DNA of 64,000 nt from an uncultured Gemmatimonadaceae bacterium (GCA_963817955.1 CAWFQK010000004.1:1600001-1664000); one strand, 5' to 3'; positions 16,678-34,809 are shown, counted from the first letter of the stretch. Program-made: numbers and translations. The notes: a model not told the origin generated them from the letters alone.

Positions 16678-16685
16678 TAGCACAA

Positions 16686-16762: not shown

Positions 16763-16834
16763 GGCGGCGGGCGATTGGGAGGGATTGAAGGGTTATGATT
16801 GCGCGTTCTCGTCCGAAATGCTCCAGCGTTGCGC

Positions 16835-17200: not shown

Positions 17201-17204
17201 AGAG

Positions 17205-17283
17205 TCAGCCGCCGATCGCCGCCTCCAGCCGCCGTCAGCCGCCGTCAGCCGCCGTCAGCCGCCGTCAGCCGCCGTCAGCCGCC
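17205..17283 (+). repeat. Tandem 10-mer GCCGTCAGCC (5 exact units plus degenerate ones)
   Basis: Exact at 17231-17280; the reverse complement (GGCGGCTGAC) resembles the upstream GGCGGACTTAC unit. Confidence 0.93.
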
Positions 17284-17388
17284 GTCAGGGAGTCAGCGTA
17301 GTCAGGGAGTCAGCGTAGTCAGGGAGTTGGCGCAGTTAGGGAGTCAGCGCCGTCAGGGAGTCAGCGCAGTTAGCCGTTCGCGCCGTCA
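17276..17388 (-). repeat. Right inverted-repeat arm: five 17-bp units plus terminal GCCGTTCGCGCCGTCA
   Basis: Units start at 17284, 17301, 17318, 17335 and 17352; reverse complement of 16565-16677 with about 9 mismatches by hand count. Confidence 0.95.
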
Positions 17389-18219
17389 AAGATCCCTCTT
17401 GTAAAAGGACTTTCCCACCACCCCCATCACACAGATGAGATACCCCACCGCATACCACACCGCCGTCCCACTCGGAATCGAGACATTCGCGAACGGTGAA
17501 AACGACAATGACCCGGTAAGTGGCGTCTGCATCTCGTATGCGGCGCGGCGCCACAGGGCCTCACTCGGCAGGATGAGGCTCGACACAACGCCGAGAGTCA
17601 CGATGTGCGCGCTCTGGGAAAAACCGCTCACCTGTTCGAGCCAGCCACCCATGAATGCGACCCCCTGAAGACCGAGCGCCAGTACCCCGCTCGTCAGGGT
17701 CGAGAACCACGTACCGAGCATGAAGGTCACGCCCAATACCAGCACACACTCGCCGGCAATCAGGAGAAAACCGCGTACCGGGTGCTCGGGCAGAATTCCC
17801 GTGGCGCCATACCCGACAGCTATGGTACCGAGGAACGTGAGCGCCACGTAAACGACGATCATGGCGACGAAACCGAGGTACTTGCCGAGCACAATCTGCC
17901 ATCGCGCGATGGGCTTGGTGGCGATCGCCTGGATCGTCCCCGAGCTGATCTCGCCGGCGATGGTATCGATCGACGTGAGAATCGTCATGACGACCGCGAG
18001 CAGGTCGCAGGTATAGAGGCCCACCATCAGCATCCCGCTCTCCACCTGATAGCGCACGAACGGCGACATCGACCGTCCCTGGAACTCGGCGACCTGCAGG
18101 CGAAGGGCAACCGTGAATACGGCGAGCAACAGCAGGGCGGCAATGAGCGCGGTCCACAGAATCTTCCGCCGCGCGGCTTCGCGCAATGTGATCCCGGCCA
18201 TGATCAAGGTGGCATTCAT
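17386..18219 (-). CDS. ABC-2-type transporter permease
   Basis: EISSGTIQAIATKPIARWQIVLGKYLG motif, multiple TM segments, C-terminal FYKRDL. Confidence 0.9.
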   Translation of the reverse strand: MNATLIMAGITLREAARRKILWTALIAALLLLAVFTVALRLQVAEFQGRSMSPFVRYQVESGMLMVGLYTCDLLAVVMTILTSIDTIAGEISSGTIQAIATKPIARWQIVLGKYLGFVAMIVVYVALTFLGTIAVGYGATGILPEHPVRGFLLIAGECVLVLGVTFMLGTWFSTLTSGVLALGLQGVAFMGGWLEQVSGFSQSAHIVTLGVVSSLILPSEALWRRAAYEMQTPLTGSLSFSPFANVSIPSGTAVWYAVGYLICVMGVVGKSFYKRDL

Positions 18220-19139
18220 AGTCCCTTATCCTCGCCGACGAGTGAGACGAACATGTCCTCGAGCGACACGCGCTGCGGCGTCACGCGAAAGATGTCAGTC
18301 CCAGCGCCCACGAGATGGCGCATGATATCGGGCAGCACAGTGTCCGACGGGACGCTGAAGGTGAGTTGGCCGGCGTCGAATCGCGCCGCGGTGGCCCACT
18401 GCGCCAAGCCGCCAACCGCACCGTCCGAGACGTTCGCTGCGTGCACGGTGACCTGGAGTCCTTCGATGGCGGTCCCGAGGGACTGCGTCGCCACGACTTC
18501 ACCTGCCTTGATGAAGGCGACGCGGTCGCAGGTGACCTCGATCTCGCTGAGCAGATGCGAGTTCAGAAAGACCGTGGCACCCCGATCGCGCTGCGCACGA
18601 ATGACGTCGCGCACCATGCGTCGACCCATTGGATCGAGGCCAGACGTGGGCTCGTCGAGGAAGATGAGGTCGGGATCATGAATCAACGCCTGGGCCAAGC
18701 CAAGTCGCTGCAGCATGCCTTTGGAGAACCCGCGAATTCGCCGCTGCGCATGTGCGCTGATCCCTACCATCTCCAGCGCTTCCGGCACGCGGGCGCGGAG
18801 GCTGGCAGCCGACATCCCGGCCAAGCGACCGTGCAGCGACAACAACTCCGACGCCGTGAGCCAATCGTAGAACCGAAAATCCTCGGGCAGGAACCCGATC
18901 CTCCGCCGGACGGGCACGTCGCCCGCCGGTTTTCCGAGGACCATGGCCTGGCCGCTGGACGGCCGAACCAGTCCGAGCAGCATCTTGATTGATGTACTCT
19001 TGCCCGCGCCGTTGGGGCCGAGGAATCCGAATATCTCGCCGCGTTCGACCGTCAGCGACAGGCCTCGCACGGCCGCGTGCGCGCCAAAGAGCTTCCGAAG
19101 GTCGTGCGTTTCGATGGCGGGTCCAGAGGAGGAAGTCAT
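18216..19139 (-). CDS. ABC transporter ATP-binding protein
   Basis: Walker A GPNGAGKS, signature FSKGM, Walker B LDEPTSGLD. Start set at ATG 19139. Confidence 0.95.
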   Translation of the reverse strand: MTSSSGPAIETHDLRKLFGAHAAVRGLSLTVERGEIFGFLGPNGAGKSTSIKMLLGLVRPSSGQAMVLGKPAGDVPVRRRIGFLPEDFRFYDWLTASELLSLHGRLAGMSAASLRARVPEALEMVGISAHAQRRIRGFSKGMLQRLGLAQALIHDPDLIFLDEPTSGLDPMGRRMVRDVIRAQRDRGATVFLNSHLLSEIEVTCDRVAFIKAGEVVATQSLGTAIEGLQVTVHAANVSDGAVGGLAQWATAARFDAGQLTFSVPSDTVLPDIMRHLVGAGTDIFRVTPQRVSLEDMFVSLVGEDKGL

Positions 19140-19156
19140 CACAGGAGCCTCATAAC

Positions 19157-20086
19157 TCAGCGCGCCATGCGCGCGAGCGCGATGCCGTCCGCCGAGCTGC
19201 CGTAGCCGGTGAGGGTATAGACAATGCCGTCGGCGGCCCACAGCAGCGCGTACGTGGGTCCACGGCGCCCGCCAGAGTTGACGAGCATGGCCGGGACGCC
19301 GGCGACATGCAGGGTGTCGTACGAGCGCAGATTGCGAGGCAATGACATGCTGAGCGCCTTCGACGCGTCGAACAGCCGCTGGAAGTCGCCGCCCTGTTTG
19401 GGGCTCATGCCGGCGAGCTCCAGCGCGATTCCGACGAGCTGCTCGGCATCGAGCGGCGGTGGAAAGATGACCGTGGTCTGCGGGGTCTCCATGAGCACCA
19501 CGCAGTTGCCGTTGTCCGTGGTCGGTGGGGGCGGCCCCTGGAGCTGGTTCTGCAGCGTGTTGGCGATTGGTGCCGGGCAATTGCCATACTGAACGCGGAC
19601 CGCGCGATGGGTGGTCAGGGTGACCGTTGCCCCTTCCACCGATGCGGGTTGCGCGAGCGTGGGCCGCCCCGCCTGTCGAAGATTCGTCTGAAGCTGCTCG
19701 GCAATCACCCTGATCTGATCGGCGTGCGACCCAATGACACTGAACGAGGGTGGATCGGTGCGACCGGCGAACAGACGCGGAGCGAATTCGGCGGCACGGC
19801 GCGCGGAGTCGGCCGACGGCACAGCAAAGTCGGGTTCATCGAGCGAGACCACCGTCGTATCGGTGAGCAGACCGGCGACGAGCTGCTGGAGTTGCCGGTT
19901 GCCGCTCGTGCCCGCCGCCGGAGCGGTCGCTGCGATCGGCTTGGGTTTGGCGATGCGGAGCGACGCAAAGAAGCGCGGTCCCAGGGCGCCACCCGGCATT
20001 GGCGCTGCACACAGCGCCGCGATGCCAACGACAGCGACGATCGGCACGAGCCACCTGTTGTGTTGCACTGCTGATTCGTCGGACAC
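19157..20086 (-). CDS. Membrane-anchored hypothetical protein, probably co-transcribed with the ABC genes
   Basis: N-terminal TM segment, 309 aa, ends 17 bp upstream of the ABC ATPase. Confidence 0.65.
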   Translation of the reverse strand: MSDESAVQHNRWLVPIVAVVGIAALCAAPMPGGALGPRFFASLRIAKPKPIAATAPAAGTSGNRQLQQLVAGLLTDTTVVSLDEPDFAVPSADSARRAAEFAPRLFAGRTDPPSFSVIGSHADQIRVIAEQLQTNLRQAGRPTLAQPASVEGATVTLTTHRAVRVQYGNCPAPIANTLQNQLQGPPPPTTDNGNCVVLMETPQTTVIFPPPLDAEQLVGIALELAGMSPKQGGDFQRLFDASKALSMSLPRNLRSYDTLHVAGVPAMLVNSGGRRGPTYALLWAADGIVYTLTGYGSSADGIALARMAR

Positions 20087-20125
20087 GAGTTCTCCAGGAC
20101 GCCGTTGCCGGCAGGTTCGATAATA

Positions 20126-20998
20126 CTACGCCACCGCCGAAGTTTGGCGAGCATCGCTCCGCGGCCGCCCCAGCGTGACTCGCGTACCCCGCCGCCGCGC
20201 GCGCACTCGCCACCGCCGCCATCCGTCCCACACGTTCGCCACGAGCAAACCCGCCAGGAGATAATACGCCGCGCCGACGCCCTCGAACACCGCGTACGCC
20301 ACGATGGCGGCGATCGCGCCATAGACGAGCTGGTCCCGGTGCTTCGGGGGCGACGTTGGCGGGTCCGTCACCATGAACAGGGCGAAGAACACCGCCGCGT
20401 GGAGATCCGGCGCTCGGTACAGTTCGGCCACGTGCGCCGGATCGCCCACGAACGCCGAGAGAGTAAAGAGGAAATAATAAATACCCAGAAACGCGAGGAC
20501 CGCCGGCAGCTTGTTCACGCGGGCGGCGATGAACACCCCCGTCACGAGCAGCGCGAGGATTGCCCAGAGGGGCAGTTCGGGCAGCGCGCCCCACCAGCTC
20601 TGTCCCGTGTGAAACGGATAGAACGTCGCGACGAGCGCCAGCGCTGCCGGATTGAACACGTTTGCGTTGCCGACGCGGATGATGTACTTGCTCACCACGC
20701 CCGCTGCCGCCGTTACGGCCGCCACGTACCACGGCTCGTGCGGACTGAGCACCATCGCCACGATCAATCCCGTGAGCAGCGCGCCGCTCGGCAGCTGCCA
20801 CCGGCCCGAGCGCCACCGCAGGATCGGCGCGTCCACGGCCATTGCGGCAACCACGGCCGCGGCGAGCCCTGGAAGCGCCAGTCGAAATCCTTCTCTGGGT
20901 ACGGCCATCCCGAGCAGGATCGCCAGGACGATGGTCACCAATCCCTTGGGCGTTCCAAAGAAGCGTTTGGCCACACGAATGCTTGATACAGGAATCAT
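20126..20998 (-). CDS. RnfD/NqrB-like membrane protein
   Basis: SGALLTGLIVAMVL, NVFNPAALAL and FFALFMVTDPPTSP motifs; ATGA overlap with apbE. Confidence 0.88.
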   Translation of the reverse strand: MIPVSSIRVAKRFFGTPKGLVTIVLAILLGMAVPREGFRLALPGLAAAVVAAMAVDAPILRWRSGRWQLPSGALLTGLIVAMVLSPHEPWYVAAVTAAAGVVSKYIIRVGNANVFNPAALALVATFYPFHTGQSWWGALPELPLWAILALLVTGVFIAARVNKLPAVLAFLGIYYFLFTLSAFVGDPAHVAELYRAPDLHAAVFFALFMVTDPPTSPPKHRDQLVYGAIAAIVAYAVFEGVGAAYYLLAGLLVANVWDGWRRWRVRARRRGTRVTLGRPRSDARQTSAVA

Positions 20999-21930
20999 GA
21001 TGCCGCCGGAAGGTACGTCGCGAACGCTGTCGTCTCGAACCGATCGAGCGTGGGTGTGATGATCAGACCATCCACGGACGAACGCTCGAGCAGTGCGAGT
21101 CCCTCGACGGGGCCGAGCACGAACGCGGCGGTAGAGAGGGCATCGGCCAGCGTCGCCTGCGGCGCAACGACGGTGACGCTCGCCGCGCCGGTCGCCGGCC
21201 TGCCGCACCGCGGATCGATGATGTGGTGCTCGCCGTCGCGCGGGCTCCGCCGCTCGTAGTCCCCCGACGTACACACGGCAGCATCACTCACCCAGAGCGT
21301 GCAGATCAGCGTGTCAACGGCGCGCGGATGACGCACGCCAACGGCCCAGGGGTCGCCTGTCGCGTTGTGCCCTGCCAGGTACAGATCGCCGCCCGCATCG
21401 ATGGCAAAGTTCTCGAGTCCCCATGACTTGCGCAGTTCAAGCGCGGCTATGTCGATGGCAAGACCCTTGGCGACCGCGCCGAAATCGAGCATTAGCGGCC
21501 GCGTGAGCGTGATCGTCTGCGCGTCCTCGTCGAGCACCACGTCGCGGTAGCTCACGGCGTCGGACGCGTTCCCGGCAGTCCGGACGGCGTTCCCGGTCCG
21601 ATACTCGCGATCGAACCCGCGCGCTTCCATCCTGTTGCCAACGGTCGGATCGAACGCGCCGAAGCTTGTCGCGGCGACGGCGATCGCCGCGCGCGCGATC
21701 TCGAACAGGATCGTGCTGACCGGCTGTGGCGAGCCTGGCCGGCGGCAGAGTGCGGTCAGCTCACTATTTGGATCAAAGCGCGAGCAGCAGCGCTCCAATT
21801 CCGCGAACCACCGCACGGCCGCCGCTGCGGCGTGCGCCCGGTCACGCGACTCGTCGGTGTCGGAGCCCGCGATCCGGATACTGACCACGGTGCTCATCGC
21901 CGAGCAACTGTGGACGAAGACGTCGCTCAC
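20995..21930 (-). CDS. apbE: FAD:protein FMN transferase
   Basis: AMST, FDPTVG, LDFGAVAKGLAID, DAGGD, TSGDYER and HIIDPR motifs; GTG start overlaps the upstream stop codon. Confidence 0.93.
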   Translation of the reverse strand: MSDVFVHSCSAMSTVVSIRIAGSDTDESRDRAHAAAAAVRWFAELERCCSRFDPNSELTALCRRPGSPQPVSTILFEIARAAIAVAATSFGAFDPTVGNRMEARGFDREYRTGNAVRTAGNASDAVSYRDVVLDEDAQTITLTRPLMLDFGAVAKGLAIDIAALELRKSWGLENFAIDAGGDLYLAGHNATGDPWAVGVRHPRAVDTLICTLWVSDAAVCTSGDYERRSPRDGEHHIIDPRCGRPATGAASVTVVAPQATLADALSTAAFVLGPVEGLALLERSSVDGLIITPTLDRFETTAFATYLPAAS

Positions 21931-22709
21931 TTTGCCTTCGAGAGTGCTTCGACCACGGCGCCATAGAACGCATTCGTGCTCTGCGTTGCCCCTGAGATGT
22001 AGTCGACCTCGGCGCTCTGGCGGTCGACCACCTGCTTGGGAAGCGCCGCGATCCACGAACATGAATAGCGCGTCAGACATTGCGTGATCGTCGCGGAAAC
22101 GATGCGCCCATTCTTGATCTCGACGGCCGCCTGAATATCGCCGTGGCGCGAGCTGCCCCAGCCCGCGTACGTGCCGTCCTTCAGGCCGTGATCGGTCGCC
22201 GCCTGCGACGCGGCGGAGTCTGTGGGCACACCGACCGGGCTCGGGGTGACCGAGGCGGTGGCGGCGGGAGCTGGAGCGGCAGCTGGGGCCGCGGAGGGCG
22301 TGCTCGTCGGCGTTGGTGTCGTCTTCGCGGTGCGCTTTGCAGTGCCACTATGCGCCAATGCACGCGCGTCGCTCTGTGCGCTGTCGGGGCCTGTCGCCGC
22401 CTTCCGGTCCGACGGCTTGGCTGGCCGCACCGTATCCACCTGTATCGGCTGTAGTGGCTGGCGCGCAATCTCGGATTCCGCGACCGGCTCATGCCGGCGA
22501 CGCGTTGCGGGCCCATCGTCAAACTGACTCGCCGCCGCCCGCGTACGGAGGAAACCAGCGCTGTAGATCGCCAGCACCGCCGCCGAGCCGAACGTGACCA
22601 GGTTGTTGGTCGAGCGCTTGCCCGTTGCGCCGACGCGCAGGCTCGCCGCCACAGGATTGGCGGCGGGCGGGCGGTTCGAGTCAGGCGACGTGTCGTCTGC
22701 GGGTGTCAT
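21927..22709 (-). CDS. Membrane-anchored FMN-binding protein with a Pro/Ala/Thr-rich linker
   Basis: LKDGTYAG...GDIQAAVEIKNGRI domain; flavinylation motif VDYISGATQST. Confidence 0.9.
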   Translation of the reverse strand: MTPADDTSPDSNRPPAANPVAASLRVGATGKRSTNNLVTFGSAAVLAIYSAGFLRTRAAASQFDDGPATRRRHEPVAESEIARQPLQPIQVDTVRPAKPSDRKAATGPDSAQSDARALAHSGTAKRTAKTTPTPTSTPSAAPAAAPAPAATASVTPSPVGVPTDSAASQAATDHGLKDGTYAGWGSSRHGDIQAAVEIKNGRIVSATITQCLTRYSCSWIAALPKQVVDRQSAEVDYISGATQSTNAFYGAVVEALSKAK

Positions 22710-22863
22710 GGGGGGCAGGGGCGGGGGGGCGTGCGACGTCTCCCTCTCATTAGACGCAGAGCTGGGGTGGGACGTTGGTGGACGGAGCGAGGTCTACTTC
22801 ATGGATTGGGCTCCGGGTGTTGACCGGCTGGATGTCGCTGGCTGCTCCGTACCGGTCGGCCCA

Positions 22864-22963
22864 CCGGTCGGCGAGGTTCGAGTTTCCAGTTGTGAGTTGT
22901 GCGTTGTGAGTGTCCCGTGTCCCGTGTCCCGTGTCCCGTGTCCCGTGTCTTGTGTCTTGTGTC
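22864..22963. repeat. Dispersed 48-bp element (copy 2) plus heptamer tract (GTGTCCC)5(GTGTCTT)2
   Basis: 47/48 identical to 1253-1300; the tract ends 7 bp from the stop codon of the serine hydrolase gene. Confidence 0.95.
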
Positions 22964-22970
22964 AGCAGTA

Positions 22971-24386
22971 CTACTCACTCGCAACCAGGTACTGCTCCAG
23001 CTTTCCGTCTGGCATGGTGAACGTCGTCAGCGTCACGCTCTTGTCGCCGCACCGAATCCGAAACGACCGAAATGTCATACCGCCGCGGAGGCTTTGGCTT
23101 GCCTGGACAACCGCCGTTGGCGGCCCGAGCGGGGAAAGGCTGGACGCAAAGTCAGCGAGGGCCTGGTCGTTGAAGTACGCGTTGGCATTCGGCGTGAACA
23201 GCCTGCGGTCGATTGAACCGTGCTGCAGTCCGGTGAAGATCGCGCGCGCTTGCGCTACCGCCGGGTAGGTTGTCTGATCGGCGGTGGTGAACAGGATGTC
23301 GGTGATGCGGCTGGCAATCTGCCGGTACGCAGTGGCCGCGTCGAGGTTGGTGAGCACCACGATCGCCATGCGGTCGTCGGGGAAGATGCTGTTCTGCGCC
23401 GTGAAACCGGACACCTCGCCCGAGTGCGAAATGAGGCGATGCCCGTAGAGTGTTCCCACGTCCACGCCCAGCCCGTAGCCGGCGGCGACGCCATTGGCGA
23501 GCCCCACCGTCGTCTGTTGCGCGAGGTACGATTCCGGCGTGAGCACTTTCTGATCGATGACGGATATGTCCCAGCGCGCGAGGTCGCTGGCCGTCATCGC
23601 CAGTTCGCCAGCGGCGAACATCCAGCCGCTTCCTTCCTTTGGCGCCACGCGCGGCGGCCCTAGCGCATAGCGTAGATACCGCTGCGGATCTGTCGGTCCG
23701 AGCGCGCCGCTATCGCTGATGAATACCGACTCCATGTGCAGCGGCGTGAACACTTCCCGGCGAAGAAAGTCCACGAGCGGCATCCCTGCCACCCGCTCTA
23801 CGATCAGGCCGGCGATGACATAATTGGTATTGCTGTACTGCCACTTGGTGCCCGGCTCGAAGTCGAGTGGCTTGCGCGCCCACTCGTTGATGATCTGTTG
23901 GGCGGTCGTGGACTTGAGCATGGGCGGCATGACGTAGTCCTGCGGCCAGAAATCCTGGTAGCCCGACGTCATCGAGAGGATCTGCCGAATGGACACCTCG
24001 TTGGCGCGCGTGAGCTCGGGCAGCCAGCGGCCCACCTTGTCGTCGAGCGACAGCTGGTGGCGCTCGGCCAGCAGCAGGACGGCCGCCGCCGTGAACTGCT
24101 TGCTGATCGACCCAATGCTGTAGCGCATCGCCGGCGTGGCCGGGAGGGCCGGATCGATGCGTGCCATGCCGTACGCGTTGGCGTAGACGATCTTGCCGTC
24201 ACGCACGACCGCGATCGACGCACTCGGCGCGCCGGTCCCCGTGAGCACGGCTCGCGCGGCGTTGTCGATGGCCGTTTGGGTCGCGACCGGGAGCGTCGCC
24301 TGCGCCAGAGCCGCAGAGGTCTGGATGAACGTTGCGGCAATGAGCGCCGCGGCAAAACAAGCAGACCGGCGGGCAGGGACGAGCAT
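22971..24386 (-). CDS. Serine hydrolase, beta-lactamase/peptidase S12 family
   Basis: Signal peptide; SxxK (GSISKQF), YSN and HSG motifs. Confidence 0.93.
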   Translation of the reverse strand: MLVPARRSACFAAALIAATFIQTSAALAQATLPVATQTAIDNAARAVLTGTGAPSASIAVVRDGKIVYANAYGMARIDPALPATPAMRYSIGSISKQFTAAAVLLLAERHQLSLDDKVGRWLPELTRANEVSIRQILSMTSGYQDFWPQDYVMPPMLKSTTAQQIINEWARKPLDFEPGTKWQYSNTNYVIAGLIVERVAGMPLVDFLRREVFTPLHMESVFISDSGALGPTDPQRYLRYALGPPRVAPKEGSGWMFAAGELAMTASDLARWDISVIDQKVLTPESYLAQQTTVGLANGVAAGYGLGVDVGTLYGHRLISHSGEVSGFTAQNSIFPDDRMAIVVLTNLDAATAYRQIASRITDILFTTADQTTYPAVAQARAIFTGLQHGSIDRRLFTPNANAYFNDQALADFASSLSPLGPPTAVVQASQSLRGGMTFRSFRIRCGDKSVTLTTFTMPDGKLEQYLVASE

Positions 24387-24563
24387 GGGATCTCCTGGAG
24401 TCTGGGGGCGTCGCCCGAACCTATCGCCGCCCTGGTGTGTGCGGTAGGCGCTGAACAGTCGGCGAAAGACGGTGGTCTAGGAGCAGACGCCCGACTGCCT
24501 TGTCCGCCGGGCGCGGCTAGGTTTTTCCTCGCATCCCCCCCATCCCGCACCGAGGATAGTTCA

Positions 24564-26753
24564 ATGAGGCTCTTTCGGTCCGTTCCGCTCGCCGCCGCCG
24601 CTGCGTCGGTAGCGTTGGCGTTGGCGCTTCCTCTCGCCCGCAACTCAGCCGCGCACGCGCAGGTCGTGGCAAAGCAGACGACTGCCCCAAAAGAAGTGCG
24701 TCGCCTCACCTCCGCCGAGCCAACCCAGCCGGGCGGATGGGTGAAGGAGTTCGGAACGATGTGGACCTTCGAATCGCCGCCGCTCGCATACTGGAAGGCG
24801 CGATATGGTTTCACGCCGGATCAGGCGTGGCTCGACCACGTTCGTCTGTCTTCCATCCGTATTCCGGGATGCTCGGCGTCGTTCGTTTCCTCGGCTGGAC
24901 TGGTGATGACCAACCACCATTGCGGCCGCGAGTGCACCGCTGGTGCGTCGCCGCGGGACAGCAACTACATCGAGACTGGCTTCGCCGCGGGCACCGCTGC
25001 CGATGAGAAGAAGTGCGCCAACATGTACGCCGACCAACTCCAGTCGATCACGAACGTCACCGACATCGTTCGTAAGGCGGTCACGGCCACCGCGCCGGCA
25101 CAGCAGGTGGCACAGCGCAACGCAGAAATCGATCGGTTACAGAAGGAGTGCGCACAGCGGCCAATAGATGTCTGTGAAGTGGTCACATTCTATCAGGGCG
25201 GCATGTATTCGTTGTACAAGTACCGCCGCTGGACGGACATCCGGTTGGTGATGGCGCCCGAGGGCAACATCGCCTTCTACGGCGGCGACCCCGACAACTT
25301 CACGTATCCACGCTACGACCTCGACCTGACGTTGCTCCGCGTGTACGACAACGGCCAGCCGATCACACCGCCGGACTTTCTCAAGTGGAGCGCCGCCGGT
25401 GCCGGTGAGAACGATCTCGTATTCGTGACCGGCAACCCCGGCTCGACCGGCCGGCTGCTCACGCTCGCGCAGATGGAGTACCTCCGCGACGTCGACTACC
25501 CGAACCGCCTGGCCAGCTACAATCGCCTGTTAGGGATCTGGCATGCGCTCGGTGCGCGCTCGCCGGACGCTCAGCGTCGCTATCAGAACCAGGTCTTCAG
25601 CTACGAGAATTCGAAGAAGGCGACCATCGGCTACCGCGCGGGGCTCCTGGATTCGTCGATCATGGCCCGGAAGCGGACGTTCGAGCGGGACTTTCGCCGG
25701 CGCATCGAGGCGAACGCGGCACTGAAGGCAAAGTATGGCCGCGCCTGGGATGAGATCGCGCGCGCCGAGACGGAGTTGGCGTCGTTCGCGACGAGGCTGC
25801 AGTGGCAGAGCTTCGGCGGCGGTTCGACGTTGTTGAACTGGGCGGGCGGCATCGTGCGTGTGCCGCTGCAATCGGCCCTGCCCGATTCGCTCCGTCTGCC
25901 CCAGTATCGCGGCGCCGGCCTCGAGCGCGTGCGTCGCCAGCTTCTCGCCGCTACCCCGGTGGACACGGCCTTCGAGCGGATGGCGCTCGCCGCGACGTTC
26001 ACGGCATGGAAAGAAGTGTTGCCCGCCAACGACCCGGCGCTCATGAAGGCGCTGGCGCTCGGAGGCGGCGACCCGCAGCGTGCCGCCGCGGCCGTGATCG
26101 CGAGGACGACGCTCACGGATACCGCGGCACGGCGCGCACTGCTCGCCGGCGGATCGGCCGCCGTGGCTGCGTCCACCGACCCGCTCATCGGGCTGGCAAG
26201 AACGATCGAGCCGGTGAACCGCCGTCTCGCCGAGCGCGCAGCGCGCCTCGACGCGACCGTCTCGGCGAACGCCGAGAAGATCGGCCAGGCAATTTTTGCC
26301 GCTTACGGCACGTCGCTGCCCCCGGACGCGACGTTCACGCTGCGCATTACCGACGGCGTCGTGAAAGGGTATCCAATGAACGGCACGCTCGCGCCCTACA
26401 AGACGACCATGTTCGGTCTGTACGACCGCGCCGCATCGTTCGACAACAAGGATCCATTCCAGCTTCCCGATCGCTGGGCGCGCGGGCGTGACCGTCTGGA
26501 TCTCACTACCCCGATGGACTTCGTATCGACCAACGACATCATCGGTGGCAACTCGGGCAGCCCCGTGATCAACCGCAATGCCGAAGTGGTGGGGCTGATC
26601 TTCGACGGGAACATTGAGTCGTTGCCGAACCGATTCATCTTTACTGACGAAGTCGCTCGGTCCGTGAGCGTCAGCTCGCGGGCGATCGTCGAGGCGTTGA
26701 GAAAGCTCTACGGAGCAGACCGGATCGCCAACGAATTGCAGGGGAAGCAGTAA
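24564..26753 (+). CDS. Peptidase S46 (dipeptidyl peptidase DPP7/DAP BII family)
   Basis: GCSASFVS, TNHHC, DNFTYPRY and IIGGNSGSP motifs; signal peptide from ATG 24564. Confidence 0.95.
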   Translation: MRLFRSVPLAAAAASVALALALPLARNSAAHAQVVAKQTTAPKEVRRLTSAEPTQPGGWVKEFGTMWTFESPPLAYWKARYGFTPDQAWLDHVRLSSIRIPGCSASFVSSAGLVMTNHHCGRECTAGASPRDSNYIETGFAAGTAADEKKCANMYADQLQSITNVTDIVRKAVTATAPAQQVAQRNAEIDRLQKECAQRPIDVCEVVTFYQGGMYSLYKYRRWTDIRLVMAPEGNIAFYGGDPDNFTYPRYDLDLTLLRVYDNGQPITPPDFLKWSAAGAGENDLVFVTGNPGSTGRLLTLAQMEYLRDVDYPNRLASYNRLLGIWHALGARSPDAQRRYQNQVFSYENSKKATIGYRAGLLDSSIMARKRTFERDFRRRIEANAALKAKYGRAWDEIARAETELASFATRLQWQSFGGGSTLLNWAGGIVRVPLQSALPDSLRLPQYRGAGLERVRRQLLAATPVDTAFERMALAATFTAWKEVLPANDPALMKALALGGGDPQRAAAAVIARTTLTDTAARRALLAGGSAAVAASTDPLIGLARTIEPVNRRLAERAARLDATVSANAEKIGQAIFAAYGTSLPPDATFTLRITDGVVKGYPMNGTLAPYKTTMFGLYDRAASFDNKDPFQLPDRWARGRDRLDLTTPMDFVSTNDIIGGNSGSPVINRNAEVVGLIFDGNIESLPNRFIFTDEVARSVSVSSRAIVEALRKLYGADRIANELQGKQ

Positions 26754-26780
26754 TGCACGGGAAGCAGTAATCAGGTACGG

Positions 26781-26817
26781 CCTCGCCGGCACGGCCTTTC
26801 GGGCCGGTCGGCGAGGT
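26781..26817. terminator. Hairpin between convergent genes; its 3' arm is the 17-bp core of the dispersed element
   Basis: CCTCGCCG...GGCC TTTC GGGCC...CGGCGAGG. Confidence 0.55.
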
Positions 26818-26830
26818 TCGCTTGCGTTGG

Positions 26831-28730
26831 TTACTGCGTATCCGGCAACCGACGCAATTCGAGTCGTGTGGGCCGGGCAGCGGTGTGGTAGACCCGCATC
26901 GTGGCCTTCTGGAAGTCCGTCGGTTTCGCTTCAAAGATGTCTGGCACGAACCGCTGCGGATTGAGATCGATGTGCGGGAACCATGTGCTCTGCACCTGCA
27001 CCATGATGCGATGCCCCCGCCTGAACGTGTGGTGAATGGAGGGCATCTCGAACTTGACGGAGTCTGCCGCATTCGGCACCATGGCCGACGGTCTTTCGAA
27101 CGACCGGCGATAGCGCGCGCGGAATGGTTCGCCGCGCACCAGTTGTTGGTAGCCGCCAACCGGAAAGGCGGTCGGGTCATTGGGCCAGTTCGCCGCACTG
27201 TCTGGAAACACGTCAATGAGCTTCACAATGAAGTCCGCGTCCGTGCCAGAGGTGCTCACGTGCAGCACCGGCGTGATCGGGCCGGTGAGCGTGATGTCCG
27301 CGGTGAGCACGTCCGTCTGATAGGTGAGCACGTCGGTGCGTCGTGACGCGAAGCGCTGGTCGGCCGTGATGTAGTCACGCGGCATCCCTTGATTCTCGAC
27401 GCGTTCCACCGTCGGCACCGGCTTCGCTGGATCGCTCACATATTCATCGAATGCGGTGCCCGCACGCGGCGGCGTGAACGCGAGCTTGCCCCCGGCCTGC
27501 AGGTAGAGCGCCGCCGGCGTCGATTCTTTCGGCGGCCACGAGTCGTAGCCATCCCATCTGTCCCCGCCGGTGCGAAACACGAGCACGCGAGGAAGCTTCG
27601 GATCCGGCGCGCCGGCGAGGTAGTGCGCAAAGAAGGGATACTCGACGGAATCCCGGAAGAACGGGCCCGTTTTGTATTTCCAACGGAGCGTGCCGAGGAC
27701 GTCGCCGTCGCCACGACTCCATCCTCCATGCGACCACGGTCCGACGATGATGCGGTTGTCCGCACCGGGACTCAGCTTCTCGATGTTGCCGTACACCCAC
27801 CATGGTCCGTGAATGTCCTCGGTATCATAGAAACCGCCGACAGCCAGGAACGCGGCTTTCACGTCGTGCAGGTGGGGGCGCACATCGCGCGCCTTCCAGA
27901 AGGCGTCGTAGGTGGGATGTGTGAGGATGGACTGCCAGAGTGGTGCGGTCGCGGAATCGAGAATCTTTCGTGTTCCGGGACCCAGAGGCTCCAATCCCAA
28001 ATAGTACTTGTAGGCGTCGGGCGTGCCCATGGAGAACGGATACTTGGGATCGGGTCCGGGCTCGTTGCGCGGGGCTCGTCCGAACCCGGTATAGAACCCG
28101 AAGTTGTGGGCCAGCAAGAAGGCACCGCCGTGGAAGTTGTCGTCCCCCATCCAGATGTCAGTCATCGGCGCCTGCGGCGAACACGCCACCAACGCCGGAT
28201 GCCTGCGAGAGACAGCTCGCGGTGGTGTAGAAGCCAGGATACGACGTGCCGTACATCCCCACCTTACCGTTCGTGGGAAGATTCTTCACCAGCCATTCAA
28301 TGCTGTCGTACGCATCGGTGCCCTCATCGACATCCGTAGGCTTGTCGTGCTTCTCGAGAATGGGCGTCATATCGCGGAAGACTCCCTCGGAGTAGTTCCG
28401 CCCGCGCACGTCCTGATAAACGAAGATGTATCCGTCCTCGACCCACTTCCGGTTGCCGGACGGACCGAGTGCCGCCTTGTAGTCGACACCGTATGGTGAC
28501 ACCGAGTATGGCGTGCGCGACATCAGCACGGGATATCGATGCGTCGTATCTCTCGGCACATAGATGGACGTGAAGAGCTGCGCCCCATCGCGGACGCGAA
28601 TGCGCACTTCGCGCTTGGTATAGAGTTCTTTGATTCGCGCCGCAAGGGCAGGGTCGCCCCCTTGACCCTGGGCCGGTAGCACGGCGGTGGCAACGAGTGC
28701 CAATGCGAGGAAGGCGAGCGGTCGACGCAT
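26831..28730 (-). pseudogene. CocE/NonD hydrolase split by a single-base frameshift near 28205 (true pseudogene or sequencing error)
   Basis: ORF 28158-28730 (signal peptide, RDG, RTPY, GTSYPG) and ORF 26831-28192 (SPQAP, GPWSHG, PepX_C) join as ...SCLS-RHPALVACSPQAP if one base is removed. Confidence 0.85.
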
Positions 28731-28752
28731 ATGAAGTCCGATAAAGATGGAT

Positions 28753-30303
28753 CTAAGTTCGGCCCCAGCCGAGGCTCCGCAAGGCCCGCCATTCGCCGGC
28801 GCGAAAGAACTGGGTCAAGGCGAGAATGGTCGGTAGGGCAGCAATGAGCACCAGCTTCAGACTCAACCCCGCGACGCTCAGGGGCCGCACGCCGACTGCT
28901 TCCGCCCAGCGGTCAATCGCGAACAGGAGCGCCGTGACGATCGCGAGGTGAACGAGCCGTCGCCACTCGAACGGCACACGAAAGACGCGGCCCGACTGCC
29001 AGGCGCCGAGTGCCGCCATCAACGCATAGGATGCGGGTGTCGCCCACGCGACGCCAACCATGCCCCAGCGCCGCGAGGCCACGATGCACGTCGCCACATT
29101 GAGCGCCGCTCCAGCGCCGGCGATCCACGGCAAGACGCTGGTTCGTCGTTCGACATACAGTCCCGAAGTCACGACGGTATAGATGCCGGTAAAGACATAC
29201 CCCAGCAGAATTACCGGAACGATGGGCAATCCGAGCCAGTACGCCGGCTTCACGTACTGGTGGACTGCCGGAATGGCCACGAGCACCGGCAGCAGGACTG
29301 AGATGATCAGGAACCCACTTGCGCAGACCAGCATGAGCGCGGTCAGGACTCTCGAGAAGAGCTGCGGTGCGTCCGGCTCGCGCGCATGCTGGAGGGCAAA
29401 CGGCGTCCACGCCAGGCGGAACATCTGCACGACCAACAGCATCGCCACACCAAGCTTGTAGTTGAAGCTGTAGATGCCGACCACATCCTTGGAACCCATC
29501 CCGTACACGCTGTGGGCGATGGCCTCGGGCAGGTAGTTGAGCACGAGCCGATCGCCGTTCTCGACGATCATGACGCCGAGCATCGCAGGCATGATCGGCA
29601 GCGCGTATCCCCAGAGTTCGCGCCACGCCGCGCCACGGAGGAGGGCGGGCCGGAATAGCCGAGCAATGTCGGCCATCACGAGCAGCAAGACGGCAATGTT
29701 TGCCCCGATGTTCGTCAGGAATATCGCAGACACGCCGGCGTTGAAGTGGCCAATCAGGACGATGTTGCCGGCAACGCTCAACCCCACGAACGCCAGTCGC
29801 AGGCTGGCGTATCGCCATGCCCGTCCGGCCATGCGCAGGTATGCAAACGGAACCGCGAGCAGCGCGTCCGAATACACAATGATCATCATGTAGCGGAACG
29901 ACGTACTGTCCAGCCTCGCCGCCGTGGCGAGCCACGGCGCTGCCGCGAAGCATGCCGCGGTGACCAGCGCACCGATCGCGAGAACGATGGCGAATGACTC
30001 GGTGAATGCGCGCTCGCCGGCTTTGGTGTTTCCCTGAGTCGCGGCGGCGTTGCGCATGTACGCCACGTCCATCCCGAGGTAGAACGCGATCGAGATGATG
30101 GGGATGTACGAATACACGACGCTCTGCACGCCGTTCTGTGCTGCATCAAAATGATGGGCGTAATACGGCTGCAGCAGGTAACTGAGCAGTCGCCCGACGA
30201 TGGAGCTCAGCCCATAGACGAGAGACTCGGAACCGAGCCGCATGAGTTTTCCGGCAAAGCGGTTCGAGCCCGGAGCCACCACGGTGACGAGTGGGGAGTT
30301 CAA
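28753..30303 (-). CDS. Polysaccharide/oligosaccharide flippase (Wzx/MOP superfamily); start may be as late as 30243
   Basis: ESLVYGLSSIVGRLLSYLLQPYY, DRLVL and VGIYSFNYKLG motifs; about 14 TM segments. Confidence 0.85.
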   Translation of the reverse strand: MNSPLVTVVAPGSNRFAGKLMRLGSESLVYGLSSIVGRLLSYLLQPYYAHHFDAAQNGVQSVVYSYIPIISIAFYLGMDVAYMRNAAATQGNTKAGERAFTESFAIVLAIGALVTAACFAAAPWLATAARLDSTSFRYMMIIVYSDALLAVPFAYLRMAGRAWRYASLRLAFVGLSVAGNIVLIGHFNAGVSAIFLTNIGANIAVLLLVMADIARLFRPALLRGAAWRELWGYALPIMPAMLGVMIVENGDRLVLNYLPEAIAHSVYGMGSKDVVGIYSFNYKLGVAMLLVVQMFRLAWTPFALQHAREPDAPQLFSRVLTALMLVCASGFLIISVLLPVLVAIPAVHQYVKPAYWLGLPIVPVILLGYVFTGIYTVVTSGLYVERRTSVLPWIAGAGAALNVATCIVASRRWGMVGVAWATPASYALMAALGAWQSGRVFRVPFEWRRLVHLAIVTALLFAIDRWAEAVGVRPLSVAGLSLKLVLIAALPTILALTQFFRAGEWRALRSLGWGRT

Positions 30304-30310
30304 GCGCGGA

Positions 30311-30342
30311 TAGGGAGCCAGCGCAGTTTAGGGAGTCAGCGC
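30311..30342 (-). repeat. Two units of the 17-bp AGGGAGTCAGCGC family
   Basis: TAGGGAGCCAGCGCAGTTTAGGGAGTCAGCGC, the same unit as in 17284-17368. Confidence 0.85.
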
Positions 30343-30432
30343 GACTTCTTGCACAGACACGTCGGCTGCTGACCATCTGGAACAGTACCCGAACGGAATG
30401 AATAGCAAATGAGGTTCAACACCCTCACACAT

Positions 30433-31107
30433 TCAGAAAATTCCCGGTATCAGATGCCAGCGGACCTTGTCCTGATATTCCGTGTACCCTGGCAGATCGT
30501 TCGCAAGCATTTTCTCCTCGTCAAACAGTCGCACGACAAAACCGAGAGCGATCAAGGCAGAAGGAATGAGCCCCCAATACGAGCCGAGAGCCAAAGACAT
30601 ACCGATGAAATATACTATTGCGCATGAATACATTGGATTCCGAACTATCGCATAAGGGCCAGTAGCGATCACTTTTTGTCCTTTGCTGATTTCTACGCTT
30701 GCCGATCCGAATGAATTTTCTTTGAAGACTCGATATACTGCCCACATGCTCACGATGATGAGAATGTCGCCTGTAATAGCAATAGAAGATGGCACGCTCG
30801 ACCAGCCGAATCTGTGGTCGAGCGCGGGAACAATGACATTGGCGATGACTGGAATTAGCAGACAAAACACAATGATCTTCTGTAGAGGTCTTGTCTCCAC
30901 GGTTGGACCGCTTTTCGCCCTGCTTTCAAGCAGTATCGGATCTTTTAGTATATACAGCGTGACCAGGACGCTTAGGAGACCGCTCACGACAAGATAAGCC
31001 CATGCTTGCCAATACCTGGCCGTTCCTGCCGTCAGAAACAAAGCGAGTCCTATGAGGAGATAGCCTGCAACATTTCCGAGCCACATTTTTGCTTTAGGAT
31101 TCATCAT
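30433..31107 (-). CDS. Isoprenylcysteine carboxyl methyltransferase (ICMT/PEMT-like) family membrane protein, AT-rich
   Basis: KVIATGPYAIVRNPMY and EEKMLANDLPGYTEY motifs. Sample line 30601-30660 is 25/60 GC, much lower than the flanks. Confidence 0.9.
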   Translation of the reverse strand: MMNPKAKMWLGNVAGYLLIGLALFLTAGTARYWQAWAYLVVSGLLSVLVTLYILKDPILLESRAKSGPTVETRPLQKIIVFCLLIPVIANVIVPALDHRFGWSSVPSSIAITGDILIIVSMWAVYRVFKENSFGSASVEISKGQKVIATGPYAIVRNPMYSCAIVYFIGMSLALGSYWGLIPSALIALGFVVRLFDEEKMLANDLPGYTEYQDKVRWHLIPGIF

Positions 31108-31169
31108 TTTATGATACAAGAAACGCGACTCTGACGTCGAACCGATTGTTGTCTTGCTTTATATAGCTC

Positions 31170-31193
31170 AGTCAGGGAGTTGGCGCCGTTCGC
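31170..31193 (-). repeat. One 17-bp family unit plus the arm terminus GCCGTTCGC
   Basis: AGTCAGGGAGTTGGCGC is identical to 17317-17333; GCCGTTCGC matches the arm end at 17373-17381. Confidence 0.85.
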
Positions 31194-31318
31194 AACACGT
31201 CCTTGGACCGCTGTTTGATGTACAGCGAGATGCCGTATCCGTGCAGCGGGCCGGCGGTAAGCGTCTTCAGGTTCCACATGACGAGCGCGCCGGGCAGCAG
31301 GTCGCGCCGTGCGGACAT
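31172..31318 (-). pseudogene. Truncated PadR-family regulator (N-terminal 48 codons)
   Basis: DLLPGAL...LKTLTAGPLHGYGISLYIKQRSKDVL breaks off before the GSLYPAL helix; the stop codon lies inside the repeat unit. Confidence 0.8.
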
Positions 31319-31647
31319 GGTTCGTTTACGGGATAGATGATCTATGGGATGGACTGACGGCTTCAACATGAAGCGGAATCCGCGGGACGCCAAGTCGCGT
31401 GTGGGCCATCGGGGGTGCCAGGCGACCGGCCGAGGGACGGATGGCATCGGTGACGCGATCTCGGGGCGAGGTTCTTGACGGGACCGTCCGTTGAATGTAG
31501 CGTCTCGCCCACCACGGGGGTCCGCGCCGTCGCGTAGCCCCGTGTCGAGTGTCGACGCGGCCGCAGTCTGCTCTTCATGGACGTCTCGTAGGCGACCACA
31601 CCAGCAGAACGTTGCCCCCTGCCCGTTCTCCAGGAGGAGAAGACCAC

Positions 31648-34600
31648 ATGACATCAGGACGTTGGAAGATGTTCGCGACAGTCGGTGCCGCGCTCATGAT
31701 GTTGACGGGCGCGGGCCACGCCCTTCATGCGCAAGGCACGATCAGCGGACGCGTAACCGGAAGTGGACAGCCGCTCCCCGAGGCGCGGGTTCTCGTGATC
31801 GGCTCCCCGCTGTCCGCCATAACGAACGACGATGGCCGATTCACCATTCGCAACGTCCCTGCCGGAACGGCGCAGGTTCAGGTGCTGCACGTCGGCTTCC
31901 AGTCAACCAAGAAGACCGTCACCGTGGCAGCCGGCGGCACCGCGACGATGGACTTCGAGCTCACCACCGCAGTGGTGCAGCTTGCCGAGGTCGTGACGAC
32001 CGCCACTGGTCAGCAGCGGCGCGTCGAGTTGGGCAACGCGGTCGCTACGCTCGGAGACGTGGGCACCAAGGTCGAGCAGTCGCAGATCGCGACGCCCGCA
32101 GATCTCCTCACCGCCAAGGCGCCGGGCGTCGTCGTGCTTCCGGGATCGACGCTCGGCGGCGCGCCGACCGTGCGTGTTCGCGGCGTCTCGTCGATCAGCT
32201 TGAGCAACGCGCCAATCTGGGTGGTGGACGGCGTCCGCATTGCGGCCGGCACGCTCACATCTGGAACGGACACGCAATTCTCGCTACTCAACACGCTCAA
32301 CCCGGACGAGATCGAGGATATTGAGATCGTGAAGGGTCCGTCGGCAGCCACGCTGTATGGCACAGACGCCGCCAACGGCGTCATCGTGGTCACGACAAAG
32401 AAGGGGAAGGCCGGCGCGTCCCGCTGGACCTATTCCGGCGAAGTCGGCAACGTCGACGATCGCACCAATTACCCGGACATGTACGCCAACTGGGGCCATA
32501 CGCTGGCCAATCCGACCAAGGCGGTGCGGTGCCAGTTGTCGAGCATGGCGCCGCTGGGCACGACGCCGGCGACGTCCACCACGTGTGCCTCCGACAGCGT
32601 CACGCACTACAACCTGCTCGCCGATCCCTCGCGAACGTTCGTGCACATGGGCCATCGCAGTTCGGCCGGCGCCCAGGTGAGCGGCGGAAACGATGCCGTG
32701 CGTTTCTTCGCGAGCGGCGACTTCAATAACGAGACGGGGCCGATTCAGATGCCGGGCTTCGAAGTGGCGCGCTTTGACGCAAACCACGTCTCGGTCCAGG
32801 ACCAGTGGTTCCACCCCCTGGCGCAGCAGCAGGAAAGCTTCCGCACGAACCTGTCCGCGGCCGTGAGTCCGACGTTCGACCTGACGGCGAATGCCGGCTT
32901 CACGAAGGTGGACAATCGCATCATGCCGGAGAGCGATCTGATCATCGCGCTGCTGTACACTGGTCTGCAGAACTATGGCTTCAAGGGGCCTGGGCTGGAC
33001 AAGACGCTGACTCAGGTCAATGGCACGCCCCTCAATGACTATCTCCAGTGGGCGCCGGGCGACATCATGCAGAATGTGAACGAGAGCGACGTGCAGCGCA
33101 CCCTCGGCAGCTTCAACGCCACGTGGCGTCCGTTGTCCTGGATGCAGAATGACGGCACCGTTGGTGTCGATCTGGCCAGCGTGAACTACTTCCACTTCTG
33201 CGGCCTCAATCAATGTCCGCCGCAGAGCGCCACCGCGCGCGTCGGCAACGTGACCGACAATCGGTCCACCACGCGAAACCTGTCGGCGAAACTCGTCAGC
33301 ACGTCCAGTTGGAACGCCAGGACGTGGGCGAATCTGAAGACGACCGTCGGCGCCGACTACGTCAATCTCGAGGCCGACGCTGTCAACTCCAACGGACAGA
33401 CGTTGCCGCCCGGTGCCAGCACGGTGAACGCCGCGGCAACGATTGGGGCATCGGAAAGCCAGCCGACGGCCACGAAGACGCTTGGTCTGTACGTGCAGGA
33501 ACAGGCTGGCTTGCGCGACCGGTTGTTCATCACGGTCGCGGCACGCTCCGACCAGAACAGCGCGTTCGGAACGAATTTCCAACGGATTCTCTACCCCAAG
33601 GCGAGTGTGTCCTGGCTGGTGTCCGATGAGTCGTTCTTCCCGAAGTACAGCTGGCTCGATCAGTTCCGTCTGCGGACGTCCTATGGCGCCAGTGGCGTAC
33701 AGCCAGGCCGCACACAGGGTCTCGTGCTGTTCTCTCCAAGCACGGTGGCCATCGACACCCGTGGTGCGACGACGGGCTCGGACACCCCAGCCCTCACCGC
33801 GAGCTCGCCAGGCAACGCCAACCTCAAGCCCGAAAAGTCCGGCGAGTATGAAGCTGGCTTCGACCTCCAGACGCTGAACAACCGGGTACACCTCGAGTAC
33901 ACCTACTACAACAAGCAGACGCGGGACGCGCTGATCAGCGTTCCGATCGCCGGCTCCGCCGCCGCACCGACGTTGAGCATTCTTCAAAACGTCGGATCGA
34001 CCAGGAATTACGGACACGAGCTCCAACTCGCGGCACAGTTGTTGGACTCGCGCCGCCTGGGCTGGGATGTGACCCTCACGGGCTCGCACAACACCGCCCT
34101 GATCGTGGATCTCGGCATCGACCCATCCACAGGCGTCGCGCGCGTCATCGGCGCCGGCGGCCTCACCGAGCAACGCAACGGCCAGCCGATCAACTCGCAG
34201 TGGTATCACCCGTACACGTACGCCGACGCCAATCACGACGGCATCCTGCAGCAGTCCGAGGTGCACGTCGATTCATCGTACGCCAACTACGGCAACGGCA
34301 TTCCCCGCGATATCTTCTCGGTGCAATCCGGCTGGGATCTCTTCGGCAAGATGGTGCGGTTCACCACGATGTTCGATTACAAGGGCGGATACAGCACGCA
34401 GGACGGCATGAACAATTTCCAGTGCAACTCCACTCCGCAATCGTGCCGCGAGACGCAGGATCCCACCGCGCCACTCGCGGAACAGGCCCGAGCCATCGCC
34501 AAGACGTATGGGACGATGATTGGGATCACGACGTATAAGACGGGCGCCGGATATTTCATGAATGGCCAGTTCTGGCGGTGGCGTGAAGCGGCGGCGATCG

Positions 34601-34809
34601 TGCAGATGCCGGATCGCATGAGCCGTCTCTTCCGAGCGCAGAACGGATCGAACCTCGTGTTCGCTGCTCGCAATCTGCATCTGTGGACCAAGTTCACCGG
34701 CCTCGATCCGGAAGCCAACTATGGCGTTGGCGGCTCCGAAGTGCAGAACGAATTCCAGAGCAATGCCGCCCCGACGTACTTCACGATGCGTCTCAACCTC
34801 AAGTACTAA
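31648..34809 (+). CDS. susC: SusC/RagA-family TonB-dependent outer-membrane receptor
   Basis: AGGAGG RBS; carboxypeptidase-regulatory-like N-domain; plug motif IEIVKGPSAATLYGTDAANGVIVVTTKKG; C-terminal aromatic residue. Confidence 0.95.
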   Translation: MTSGRWKMFATVGAALMMLTGAGHALHAQGTISGRVTGSGQPLPEARVLVIGSPLSAITNDDGRFTIRNVPAGTAQVQVLHVGFQSTKKTVTVAAGGTATMDFELTTAVVQLAEVVTTATGQQRRVELGNAVATLGDVGTKVEQSQIATPADLLTAKAPGVVVLPGSTLGGAPTVRVRGVSSISLSNAPIWVVDGVRIAAGTLTSGTDTQFSLLNTLNPDEIEDIEIVKGPSAATLYGTDAANGVIVVTTKKGKAGASRWTYSGEVGNVDDRTNYPDMYANWGHTLANPTKAVRCQLSSMAPLGTTPATSTTCASDSVTHYNLLADPSRTFVHMGHRSSAGAQVSGGNDAVRFFASGDFNNETGPIQMPGFEVARFDANHVSVQDQWFHPLAQQQESFRTNLSAAVSPTFDLTANAGFTKVDNRIMPESDLIIALLYTGLQNYGFKGPGLDKTLTQVNGTPLNDYLQWAPGDIMQNVNESDVQRTLGSFNATWRPLSWMQNDGTVGVDLASVNYFHFCGLNQCPPQSATARVGNVTDNRSTTRNLSAKLVSTSSWNARTWANLKTTVGADYVNLEADAVNSNGQTLPPGASTVNAAATIGASESQPTATKTLGLYVQEQAGLRDRLFITVAARSDQNSAFGTNFQRILYPKASVSWLVSDESFFPKYSWLDQFRLRTSYGASGVQPGRTQGLVLFSPSTVAIDTRGATTGSDTPALTASSPGNANLKPEKSGEYEAGFDLQTLNNRVHLEYTYYNKQTRDALISVPIAGSAAAPTLSILQNVGSTRNYGHELQLAAQLLDSRRLGWDVTLTGSHNTALIVDLGIDPSTGVARVIGAGGLTEQRNGQPINSQWYHPYTYADANHDGILQQSEVHVDSSYANYGNGIPRDIFSVQSGWDLFGKMVRFTTMFDYKGGYSTQDGMNNFQCNSTPQSCRETQDPTAPLAEQARAIAKTYGTMIGITTYKTGAGYFMNGQFWRWREAAAIVQMPDRMSRLFRAQNGSNLVFAARNLHLWTKFTGLDPEANYGVGGSEVQNEFQSNAAPTYFTMRLNLKY

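Follow-up and report, generated by a model that had tools for sequence, protein, structure and literature searches.

A foldback-repeat arm split by a foreign methyltransferase gene and joined to a truncated padR gene in an uncultured Gemmatimonadaceae bacterium

The window, i.e. the whole stretch of 64,000 nucleotides that was analysed (GCA_963817955.1 CAWFQK010000004.1:1600001-1664000), belongs to a metagenome-derived genome of an uncultured Gemmatimonadaceae bacterium (4.53 Mb in 9 contigs, ~64% GC, 94% complete, 4.3% estimated contamination). At 30.29-31.19 kb it contains two small blocks of a 17-bp repeat, which enclose a methyltransferase gene of low GC content and which are joined on one side to the start of a membrane-protein gene and on the other side to a padR gene that has lost its 3' part. 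A complete element of the same repeat family, with a gene of its own in its loop, is found elsewhere in the window. The features, in window coordinates, are:

16567-17385: full foldback member of the repeat family, made up of a terminus, five 17-bp units, seven 10-bp units, a loop with a gene, and the mirror image
16799-17200, plus strand: four-helix-bundle gene of the 23S_rRNA_IVP family, carried in the loop of that element; PF05635, 1.1e-15, 58.2 bits (cut-off 33.8); TIGR02436, 2.4e-16
28753-30303, minus strand: gene for a 516-aa multi-pass membrane protein ('flippase'); start at TTG 30303 or ATG 30243; GC3 0.80
30294-30342, plus strand: inner right-arm remnant with about three 17/18-bp units, the first degenerate (BLASTN and reading of the sequence)
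30343-31164 (to 31169 at its widest; 822-827 bp): foreign low-GC segment, delimited by GC content, BLASTN and change points
30433-31107, minus strand: intact PEMT/ICMT-family methyltransferase gene; 224 aa from ATG 31107, or 228 aa from the alternative TTG 31119
31165-31193 (BLASTN start at 31164 or 31166), plus strand: outer right-arm remnant with a unit tail, a full unit and the partial terminus GTTCGC
31172-31318, minus strand: truncated padR; 42 PadR codons (31193-31318), then six repeat codons and TGA
31648-34809, plus strand: gene for a TonB-dependent receptor (Pfam), divergent from padR, as the context on the right flank

When the limits of the two blocks are set by BLASTN with 20 arms of the repeat family, only ~77 bp of a single right arm survive at 30.29-31.19 kb. 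Units of the form AGGGAG(C/T)CAGCGC begin at 30312 and 30330 and AGGGAGTTGGCGC begins at 31174, all on the plus strand and all in the orientation of the right arm at 17287-17367. A scan for the unit pattern with up to two mismatches returned 16 matches against 3.11 expected, a number that was reached in 0 of 100 shuffles. An earlier, sequence-only reading of this DNA had described right-arm-orientation units around an ~0.8-kb AT-rich segment with an ICMT-like gene, and this description is borne out by the sequence itself, BLASTN, GC content and Pfam; it had also noted that the copy at 31170 is identical to 17317-17333, and the 17-mer at 31170-31186 does agree with that stretch letter for letter. 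The further statement that this copy carries the arm terminus is correct insofar as the 17-mer is followed by GCCGTTCGC, which is also present in the terminus of the full element (17374-17382), but the terminus at 31187-31193 is incomplete and has neither the GTNAGCN stretch nor the last GCCGTC. Similarly, units do lie on both sides of the gene, as the word 'bracket' had implied, but the two blocks are direct rather than inverted and therefore look like one arm split in two and not like two elements bracketing a cassette. Removing 30343-31164 in silico restores a continuous, periodic unit array. Neither a target-site duplication nor a canonical end was found at the junctions of this locus, the remnant itself is without a four-helix-bundle ORF, and Rfam gave no match within 16000-32000.

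The segment that separates the two blocks differs sharply from its surroundings, with a GC content of 47.8% (30343-31169) against a genome mean of 64.0% (s.d. 3.1%, 400-bp windows). A two-change-point fit of GC content places the boundaries at 30375 and 31174, with support intervals (30310-30407 and 31160-31246) that include the inner edges of both repeats; the shifts in composition thus coincide with the repeats, a point that a sliding-GC plot had been proposed to test. The sequence AGCGC at the left edge (30338-30342) has a counterpart, AGCTC, at the right edge (31165-31169), which makes the latter ambiguous by 5 bp. This match is imperfect, and microhomology, target duplication and chance all fit it and cannot be separated. 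A search of the ends of the segment for repeats or inverted repeats found none.

Exactly between the units sits one complete gene with ~50 bp of its own upstream DNA. Its ORF (30433-31119, minus strand) matches PF04191 PEMT (2e-12, 47.8 bits, cut-off 25) and PF04140 ICMT (1e-6, 29.6 bits, cut-off 24), whereas its score against the NCBIfam equivalog isopcys_mtase (NF040696) is 50.6 bits and thus under the 160-bit cut-off. By Pfam, the predicted product belongs to the PEMT/ICMT superfamily, and the likeness to isoprenylcysteine O-methyltransferases is a family-level one. The protein is of full length, as homologues mostly have 223-235 aa and alignments begin at residue 5.

Several lines of evidence speak for a foreign origin of this gene. 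Its GC content is 47.6% and its GC3 0.51, compared to a GC3 of 0.72-0.86 in the neighbouring genes. The best homologues in 24 genomes of the same genus reach 48-50% identity (at 62-66% GC) and a paralogue in the same genome 40%, whereas the best matches among 5.8 billion database proteins are 70-74% identical. Most of these carry no taxon name, and the few named ones are proteins from Paceibacterota (71%) and Dehalococcoidia (69%) metagenome-assembled genomes (MAGs). Maximum-likelihood analysis of 47 proteins gave a tree in which the eight homologues of the genus and of this genome are parted from the window protein and 38 database proteins by a branch with 100/99 support, a clustering that is partly by construction, because the database proteins were chosen as best matches of the query. 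At two loci of species representatives (71% and 68% identity, on contigs of 55% and 43% GC), nucleotide similarity is found inside the ORF only, and for the relatives L045 and L046 it is limited to window positions 30435-31107; no repeats of the present kind surround the relatives of the gene in two other genomes. Composition, identity and tree together mark the methyltransferase gene as foreign and, to judge by its sequence, as horizontally acquired, in agreement with the earlier reading. As a side observation, the MAG of an uncultured bacterium that carries L046 has a second, diverged copy of the gene 688 bp downstream of the homologue, i.e. a tandem paralogue (L046:3001-4300).

On the other side of the outer block, the padR frame ends as RTAPTP followed by TGA, all of it encoded by the repeat. 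The earlier claim that the padR frame breaks off at the repeat and takes its stop codon from there therefore stands, and the junction sits within the truncated, non-canonical terminus. What is left of the protein matches positions 2-35 of the 101 positions of TIGR03433 (E 6e-7), so that the winged helix of ~100 residues is incomplete. The closest relatives of this padR are 52-68% identical; five of them have 108-110 aa, and the sixth (L048) has 80 aa where its locus ends. An ADOP permease gene directly follows padR in five of the six evaluable loci of these relatives, which is the usual TIGR03433/TIGR03434 pairing and is also seen in an intact pair in the present genome at C1:248.9-251.9 kb. 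The permeases of the relatives have no orthologue in this genome (best match 36% identity), and the 3' two-thirds of padR together with a permease gene of ~2.5 kb have therefore been deleted rather than moved. An orphan C-terminal half of a PadR protein at C2:274911-275090 (minus strand), which starts with ASLYPAL (around residue 47) and has an ADOP permease gene after it (C2:275091-277000), was considered as the missing piece, its break point being only ~5 residues from that of the window padR; it was rejected, being 44-53% identical to the ortholog group and having an adjacent permease that is not orthologous to the ADOP permeases of the relatives. This orphan is cut off by an island of 53-60% GC next to a tRNA-like sequence, with ORFs that by eye look like a toxin/antitoxin/SecB-like chaperone trio.

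The inner block adjoins the membrane-protein gene and overlaps the open frame upstream of it; the array begins within ~10 codons, and by eye the alignment shows the conserved N-terminus to be kept. This protein has no Pfam match even at E<=1, and its designation as a 'flippase' derives solely from a weak match to NCBIfam HfsF (E 0.0099, 14.9 bits, cut-off 700). Truncated padR shares the minus strand with the methyltransferase and membrane-protein genes, and on this arrangement the three could form one transcript. Orthologues of the membrane protein, 66-70% identical, occur in three of 40 relatives (G013, G021 and G006) and have no neighbours in common with the window over 12 kb. The arrangement padR-ADOP-ADOP-flippase is found in G013 and is absent from G021, but the padR of G013 is non-orthologous and only 43% identical to the fragment and is therefore not taken as the ancestral state. 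On the right flank, the 1.5 kb upstream of the orthologues of the TonB-dependent receptor (71-76% identity) contain no padR, and the genes found upstream are different ones. Next to the membrane-protein gene, a hydrolase-like gene appears to be split into two overlapping ORFs (26831-28192 and 28158-28730, minus strand), maybe by a frameshift or an assembly error.

The repeats at this locus belong to a family with 14 multi-unit loci in the genome, seven of them full foldbacks and seven solo arms. A full foldback begins with the terminus TGACGGCGCGAACNGCT, continues with 4-8 units of 17 bp (AGGGAGTCAGCGC family), several units of 10 bp and a loop of ~100-450 bp, and ends with the mirror image; the termini conserved in the family are TGACGGCGCGAAC...GTTCGCGCCGTCA. 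The 17-bp and 10-bp modules have an ACGGCG core in common and are sometimes interleaved, and the units are not themselves palindromic. The full element in the window folds as a hairpin (-282.9 kcal/mol, z -18.6). All copies sit between or beside protein genes, and ten of the 20 outer termini are at most 20 bp away from the stop codon of the flanking gene, with the terminal TGA/TCA being the stop codon itself in several cases. For the full element in the window this holds on both sides (16565-16567 and 17383-17388), its terminal TGA/TCA providing the stop codons of both flanking genes. A two-unit pattern of the family has 74 matches in this genome and none in 40 relatives or in the collection of species-representative genomes, i.e. 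the family is restricted to this genome among those searched.

It is this restriction, along with copy number and conserved termini, on which the case for mobility of the family rests; the present locus adds no direct evidence, although it had been cited in support of the mobility of the 16.5-17.4 kb element. Inspection by eye revealed no consistent target-site duplication at the seven full copies. The genome has no match to the Y1/RAYT transposase family PF01797 and no paired family termini enclosing a transposase, which at 94% completeness does not prove that a transposase-bearing partner is absent. An origin of the arms from IS21 was considered and rejected, as the end repeats of the IS21 copy in this genome are of another kind. 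That IS21-type copy (C9:139900-142860) is flanked by several copies of a separate hairpin repeat family, GTTCACCGCCGTGTAGGCGGCTTAGAAG.

Which process could have generated a structure in which ~77 bp of array DNA carry three junctions, i.e. to the start of the membrane-protein gene, to the foreign segment and to padR codon 42? That the repeats mark rearrangement junctions had been proposed before and is supported by this arrangement. Our preferred interpretation is that the locus is probably the scar of a breakage with untidy repair at a hairpin-prone repeat, accompanied by deletions and by the capture of foreign DNA. A foldback arm prone to hairpin formation would have broken and been imprecisely repaired. 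On the outer side, a deletion would have taken the last part of the terminus along with the 3' two-thirds of padR and the adjoining ADOP permease gene; on the inner side, the rest of the element would have been lost, leaving the remnant abutting the start of the membrane-protein gene; and between two units, a foreign low-GC fragment of 822-827 bp with its complete ICMT/PEMT-family gene would have been joined in. Repeat instability as the cause, end joining as the mode of repair and the order of events are what we infer here, and a single break does not suffice for three junctions, which call for additional breaks or for a series of events.

Long inverted repeats are known to be fragile, and palindromes stimulate deletion, with SbcCD cleavage, Ku/LigD end joining and the capture of filler DNA during double-strand-break repair. 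The locus resembles the outcome of such repair, known here from sequence, in that one arm is lost, the flank is deleted and unrelated DNA is inserted, and a Ku gene is present in the genome. Genome-wide, windows with less than 52% GC define 30 islands in 4.53 Mb; the one described here is among the two strongest and is the only one that adjoins an array. As arrays make up ~0.1% of the genome, ~0.03 of these 30 islands would be expected in an array by chance. For a single event, the causal role of the repeat rests on this estimate and on the known fragility of long inverted repeats, and with one case the estimate is suggestive. No empty or intermediate allele was found. The relatives are too rearranged for a synteny comparison, and four public runs that contain parts of the region show no alternative joint at 2-3x depth. 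These runs, all from the same study, contain 8-11% of the sampled words; their contigs are short and none skips the island, which speaks neither for nor against an empty site.

Alternatively, successive unrelated events may have met at a repeat that remained passive: a foldback located at the 3' end of a padR-ADOP operon would have been affected by ordinary deletions and, independently, by an illegitimate insertion. With half of the outer termini of the family being located near stop codons, one would expect the element to have started out directly behind ADOP. Truncated padR genes also occur without a repeat array nearby, i.e. the orphan half at C2:274911-275090 described above and a second PadR-like gene without its N-terminal part at C2:540065-540256 (plus strand); a family array was found neither at C2:274911-277000 nor near the latter gene. 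Moreover, an N-terminal padR query detects six places in this genome compared to 11-34 in each of 24 relatives of the same genus, and this low number hints at an ongoing loss of padR-ADOP pairs. However, passive coincidence would have to account for three junctions within so short a piece of array and for the position of the sole strongly foreign single-gene island exactly between units, given that arrays occupy so little of the genome, and we regard it as rather unlikely.

A process in which the repeats themselves are the agents seems improbable, namely that the arms of elements resembling the intervening sequences (IVS) of 23S rRNA genes are active recombination substrates able to take up unrelated genes between units, with the ICMT segment as the first cargo swap to be seen. 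The methyltransferase gene would then either ride in a cassette or replace the four-helix-bundle gene, and the same activity would have given rise to the solo arms and to the copies without an ORF. Still more doubtful is a homologous exchange, in which the methyltransferase gene was joined to the units in another strain of the species and entered this genome when the units on its two sides recombined. The segment does have direct copies of the units at both ends, and the donor must be conspecific because among the genomes searched only this one has the units, but the homology on either side amounts to no more than 49 and ~28 bp, and the exchange would shift the original capture event to another strain.

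Equally hard to uphold is the suggestion of the sequence-only reading that the 17-bp units form an integrase-free cassette system, i.e. dedicated recombination sites that capture and mobilize unrelated genes. In its favour, a complete single gene with some upstream DNA of its own lies exactly between units, and the contents of the loops differ between copies of the family. DNA of foreign composition, however, is present at this one repeat locus only: one of the 30 low-GC islands adjoins an array, the other 14 loci adjoin none, and beyond 30.3-31.2 kb arrays and low-GC islands are thus not linked in this genome. Where solo left and right arms enclose DNA at other places, its GC content is ordinary and it consists of ordinary or decayed host genes, as at C4:1136-1146 kb (sensor kinases, an amidase, a TPR protein and a multicopper oxidase). 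Integron-like cassettes are defined by several cargo genes and a recombinase; here, neither a Y1/RAYT transposase in the genome nor a transposase or recombinase among the 22 neighbouring ORFs scanned was detected, the padR junction lies at a truncated, non-canonical terminus, and relatives of the methyltransferase gene elsewhere come without such repeats. The locus looks like one well-documented rearrangement scar, a one-off event and not a new gene-capturing system.

An assembly chimera, with a low-GC fragment of another organism joined in at the repeats, is highly improbable. Misjoins typically arise at repeats, and contamination of the genome is estimated at 4.3%. However, a chimera would require the 1.71-Mb contig to be misjoined twice within 830 bp. 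Short contigs from a public soil run, which may be the source sample of the genome and is hence not independent support, cover 30205-30381 and 31143-31354 with 0 differences. They bridge the repeat/padR junction as well as the left junction of the island, reaching 39 nt into the latter, whereas at the right edge just 22-27 nt on the island side are covered.

Returning to breakage and untidy repair as the favoured explanation, the locus is a concrete example of a repeat-element arm that coincides with the loss of resident genes (padR-ADOP) and the gain of a foreign one. If such arms turn out to be hot spots where DNA is deleted and captured, they would contribute to the plasticity of genomes in soil Gemmatimonadota. 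Solo arms occur in other settings as well. At C1:245862-248817, a solo left and a solo right arm are 2.7 kb apart, with normal GC content and a weak coding signal between them; this stretch (C1:246-248.7 kb) is decayed DNA in which two gene fragments are found, one of them C-terminal chemoreceptor-signalling sequence and the other ArsR-like, and downstream of it come an intact padR-ADOP pair and then a full foldback.

The analysis also ties a hitherto orphan 17-bp repeat family to four-helix-bundle, rRNA-intervening-sequence cassettes. A decayed fragment of the gene in the loop of the full element is found in another loop of the family (C1:252090-252256). The genome has five PF05635 genes, and of the four outside this element three lie within inverted repeats of 127 nt (94%; C4:1054669-1054980), 121 nt (96%; C4:1553199-1553510) and 48 nt (92%; C1:472315-472626). 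Their arms are tandem arrays whose units, heptamer-like or 24 bp long, have no relation to the 17-bp family. Flanking inverted repeats score above all 200 random controls (maximum 29.2 bits) at four of the five PF05635 loci of this genome and at 22 of the 28 testable loci in relatives. Our literature search found no description of free-standing PF05635 genes in repeat hairpins.

In build, the 17-bp family is related to ORF-bearing IVS of 23S rRNA, both having inverted tandem-repeat arms around a PF05635 gene. The IVS of Coxiella burnetii is described as having a stem with the S23p ORF in the loop and a variable number of tandem heptamers, i.e. variable short direct repeats beside the ORF, and is called a selfish element with mobility unknown (PMC4990558). 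Unlike the IVS of 23S rRNA, which by strict definition reside within the 23S rRNA gene (in helix 45) and are cut out by RNase III, the elements described here lie between protein genes, their arms extend to ~200 nt and are composed of 17-bp and 10-bp units, and there are ORF-less copies and solo arms. The family with its 17/10-bp modules, ORF-less derivatives and solo arms is thus a local variant of IVS-like four-helix-bundle hairpin elements.

The family also shares features with other repeats. As in MITEs and foldback elements, its members are multi-copy, non-coding or nearly so, and have conserved terminal inverted repeats; the FB elements of Drosophila have arms made of tandem sub-repeats, as seen here. 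In contrast to MITEs, the seven full copies have no target-site duplication (again by eye), and no partner transposase with these ends was found. REPIN/RAYT systems are similar in being hairpin-forming intergenic repeat doublets of a single lineage, often at gene ends, but differ by their palindromic units and by the PF01797 transposase, for which this genome has no match. Finally, the genes that border the full element in the window allow a view of the site in relatives. Orthologues of its ABC-2 permease neighbour in ten relatives end with ...DL and their own stop codon, followed by unrelated downstream DNA, and in one locus (L099, G005:C3) three tandem repeats of the GGACCGGT type come right after the permease stop codon, at the place where the window has the foldback.
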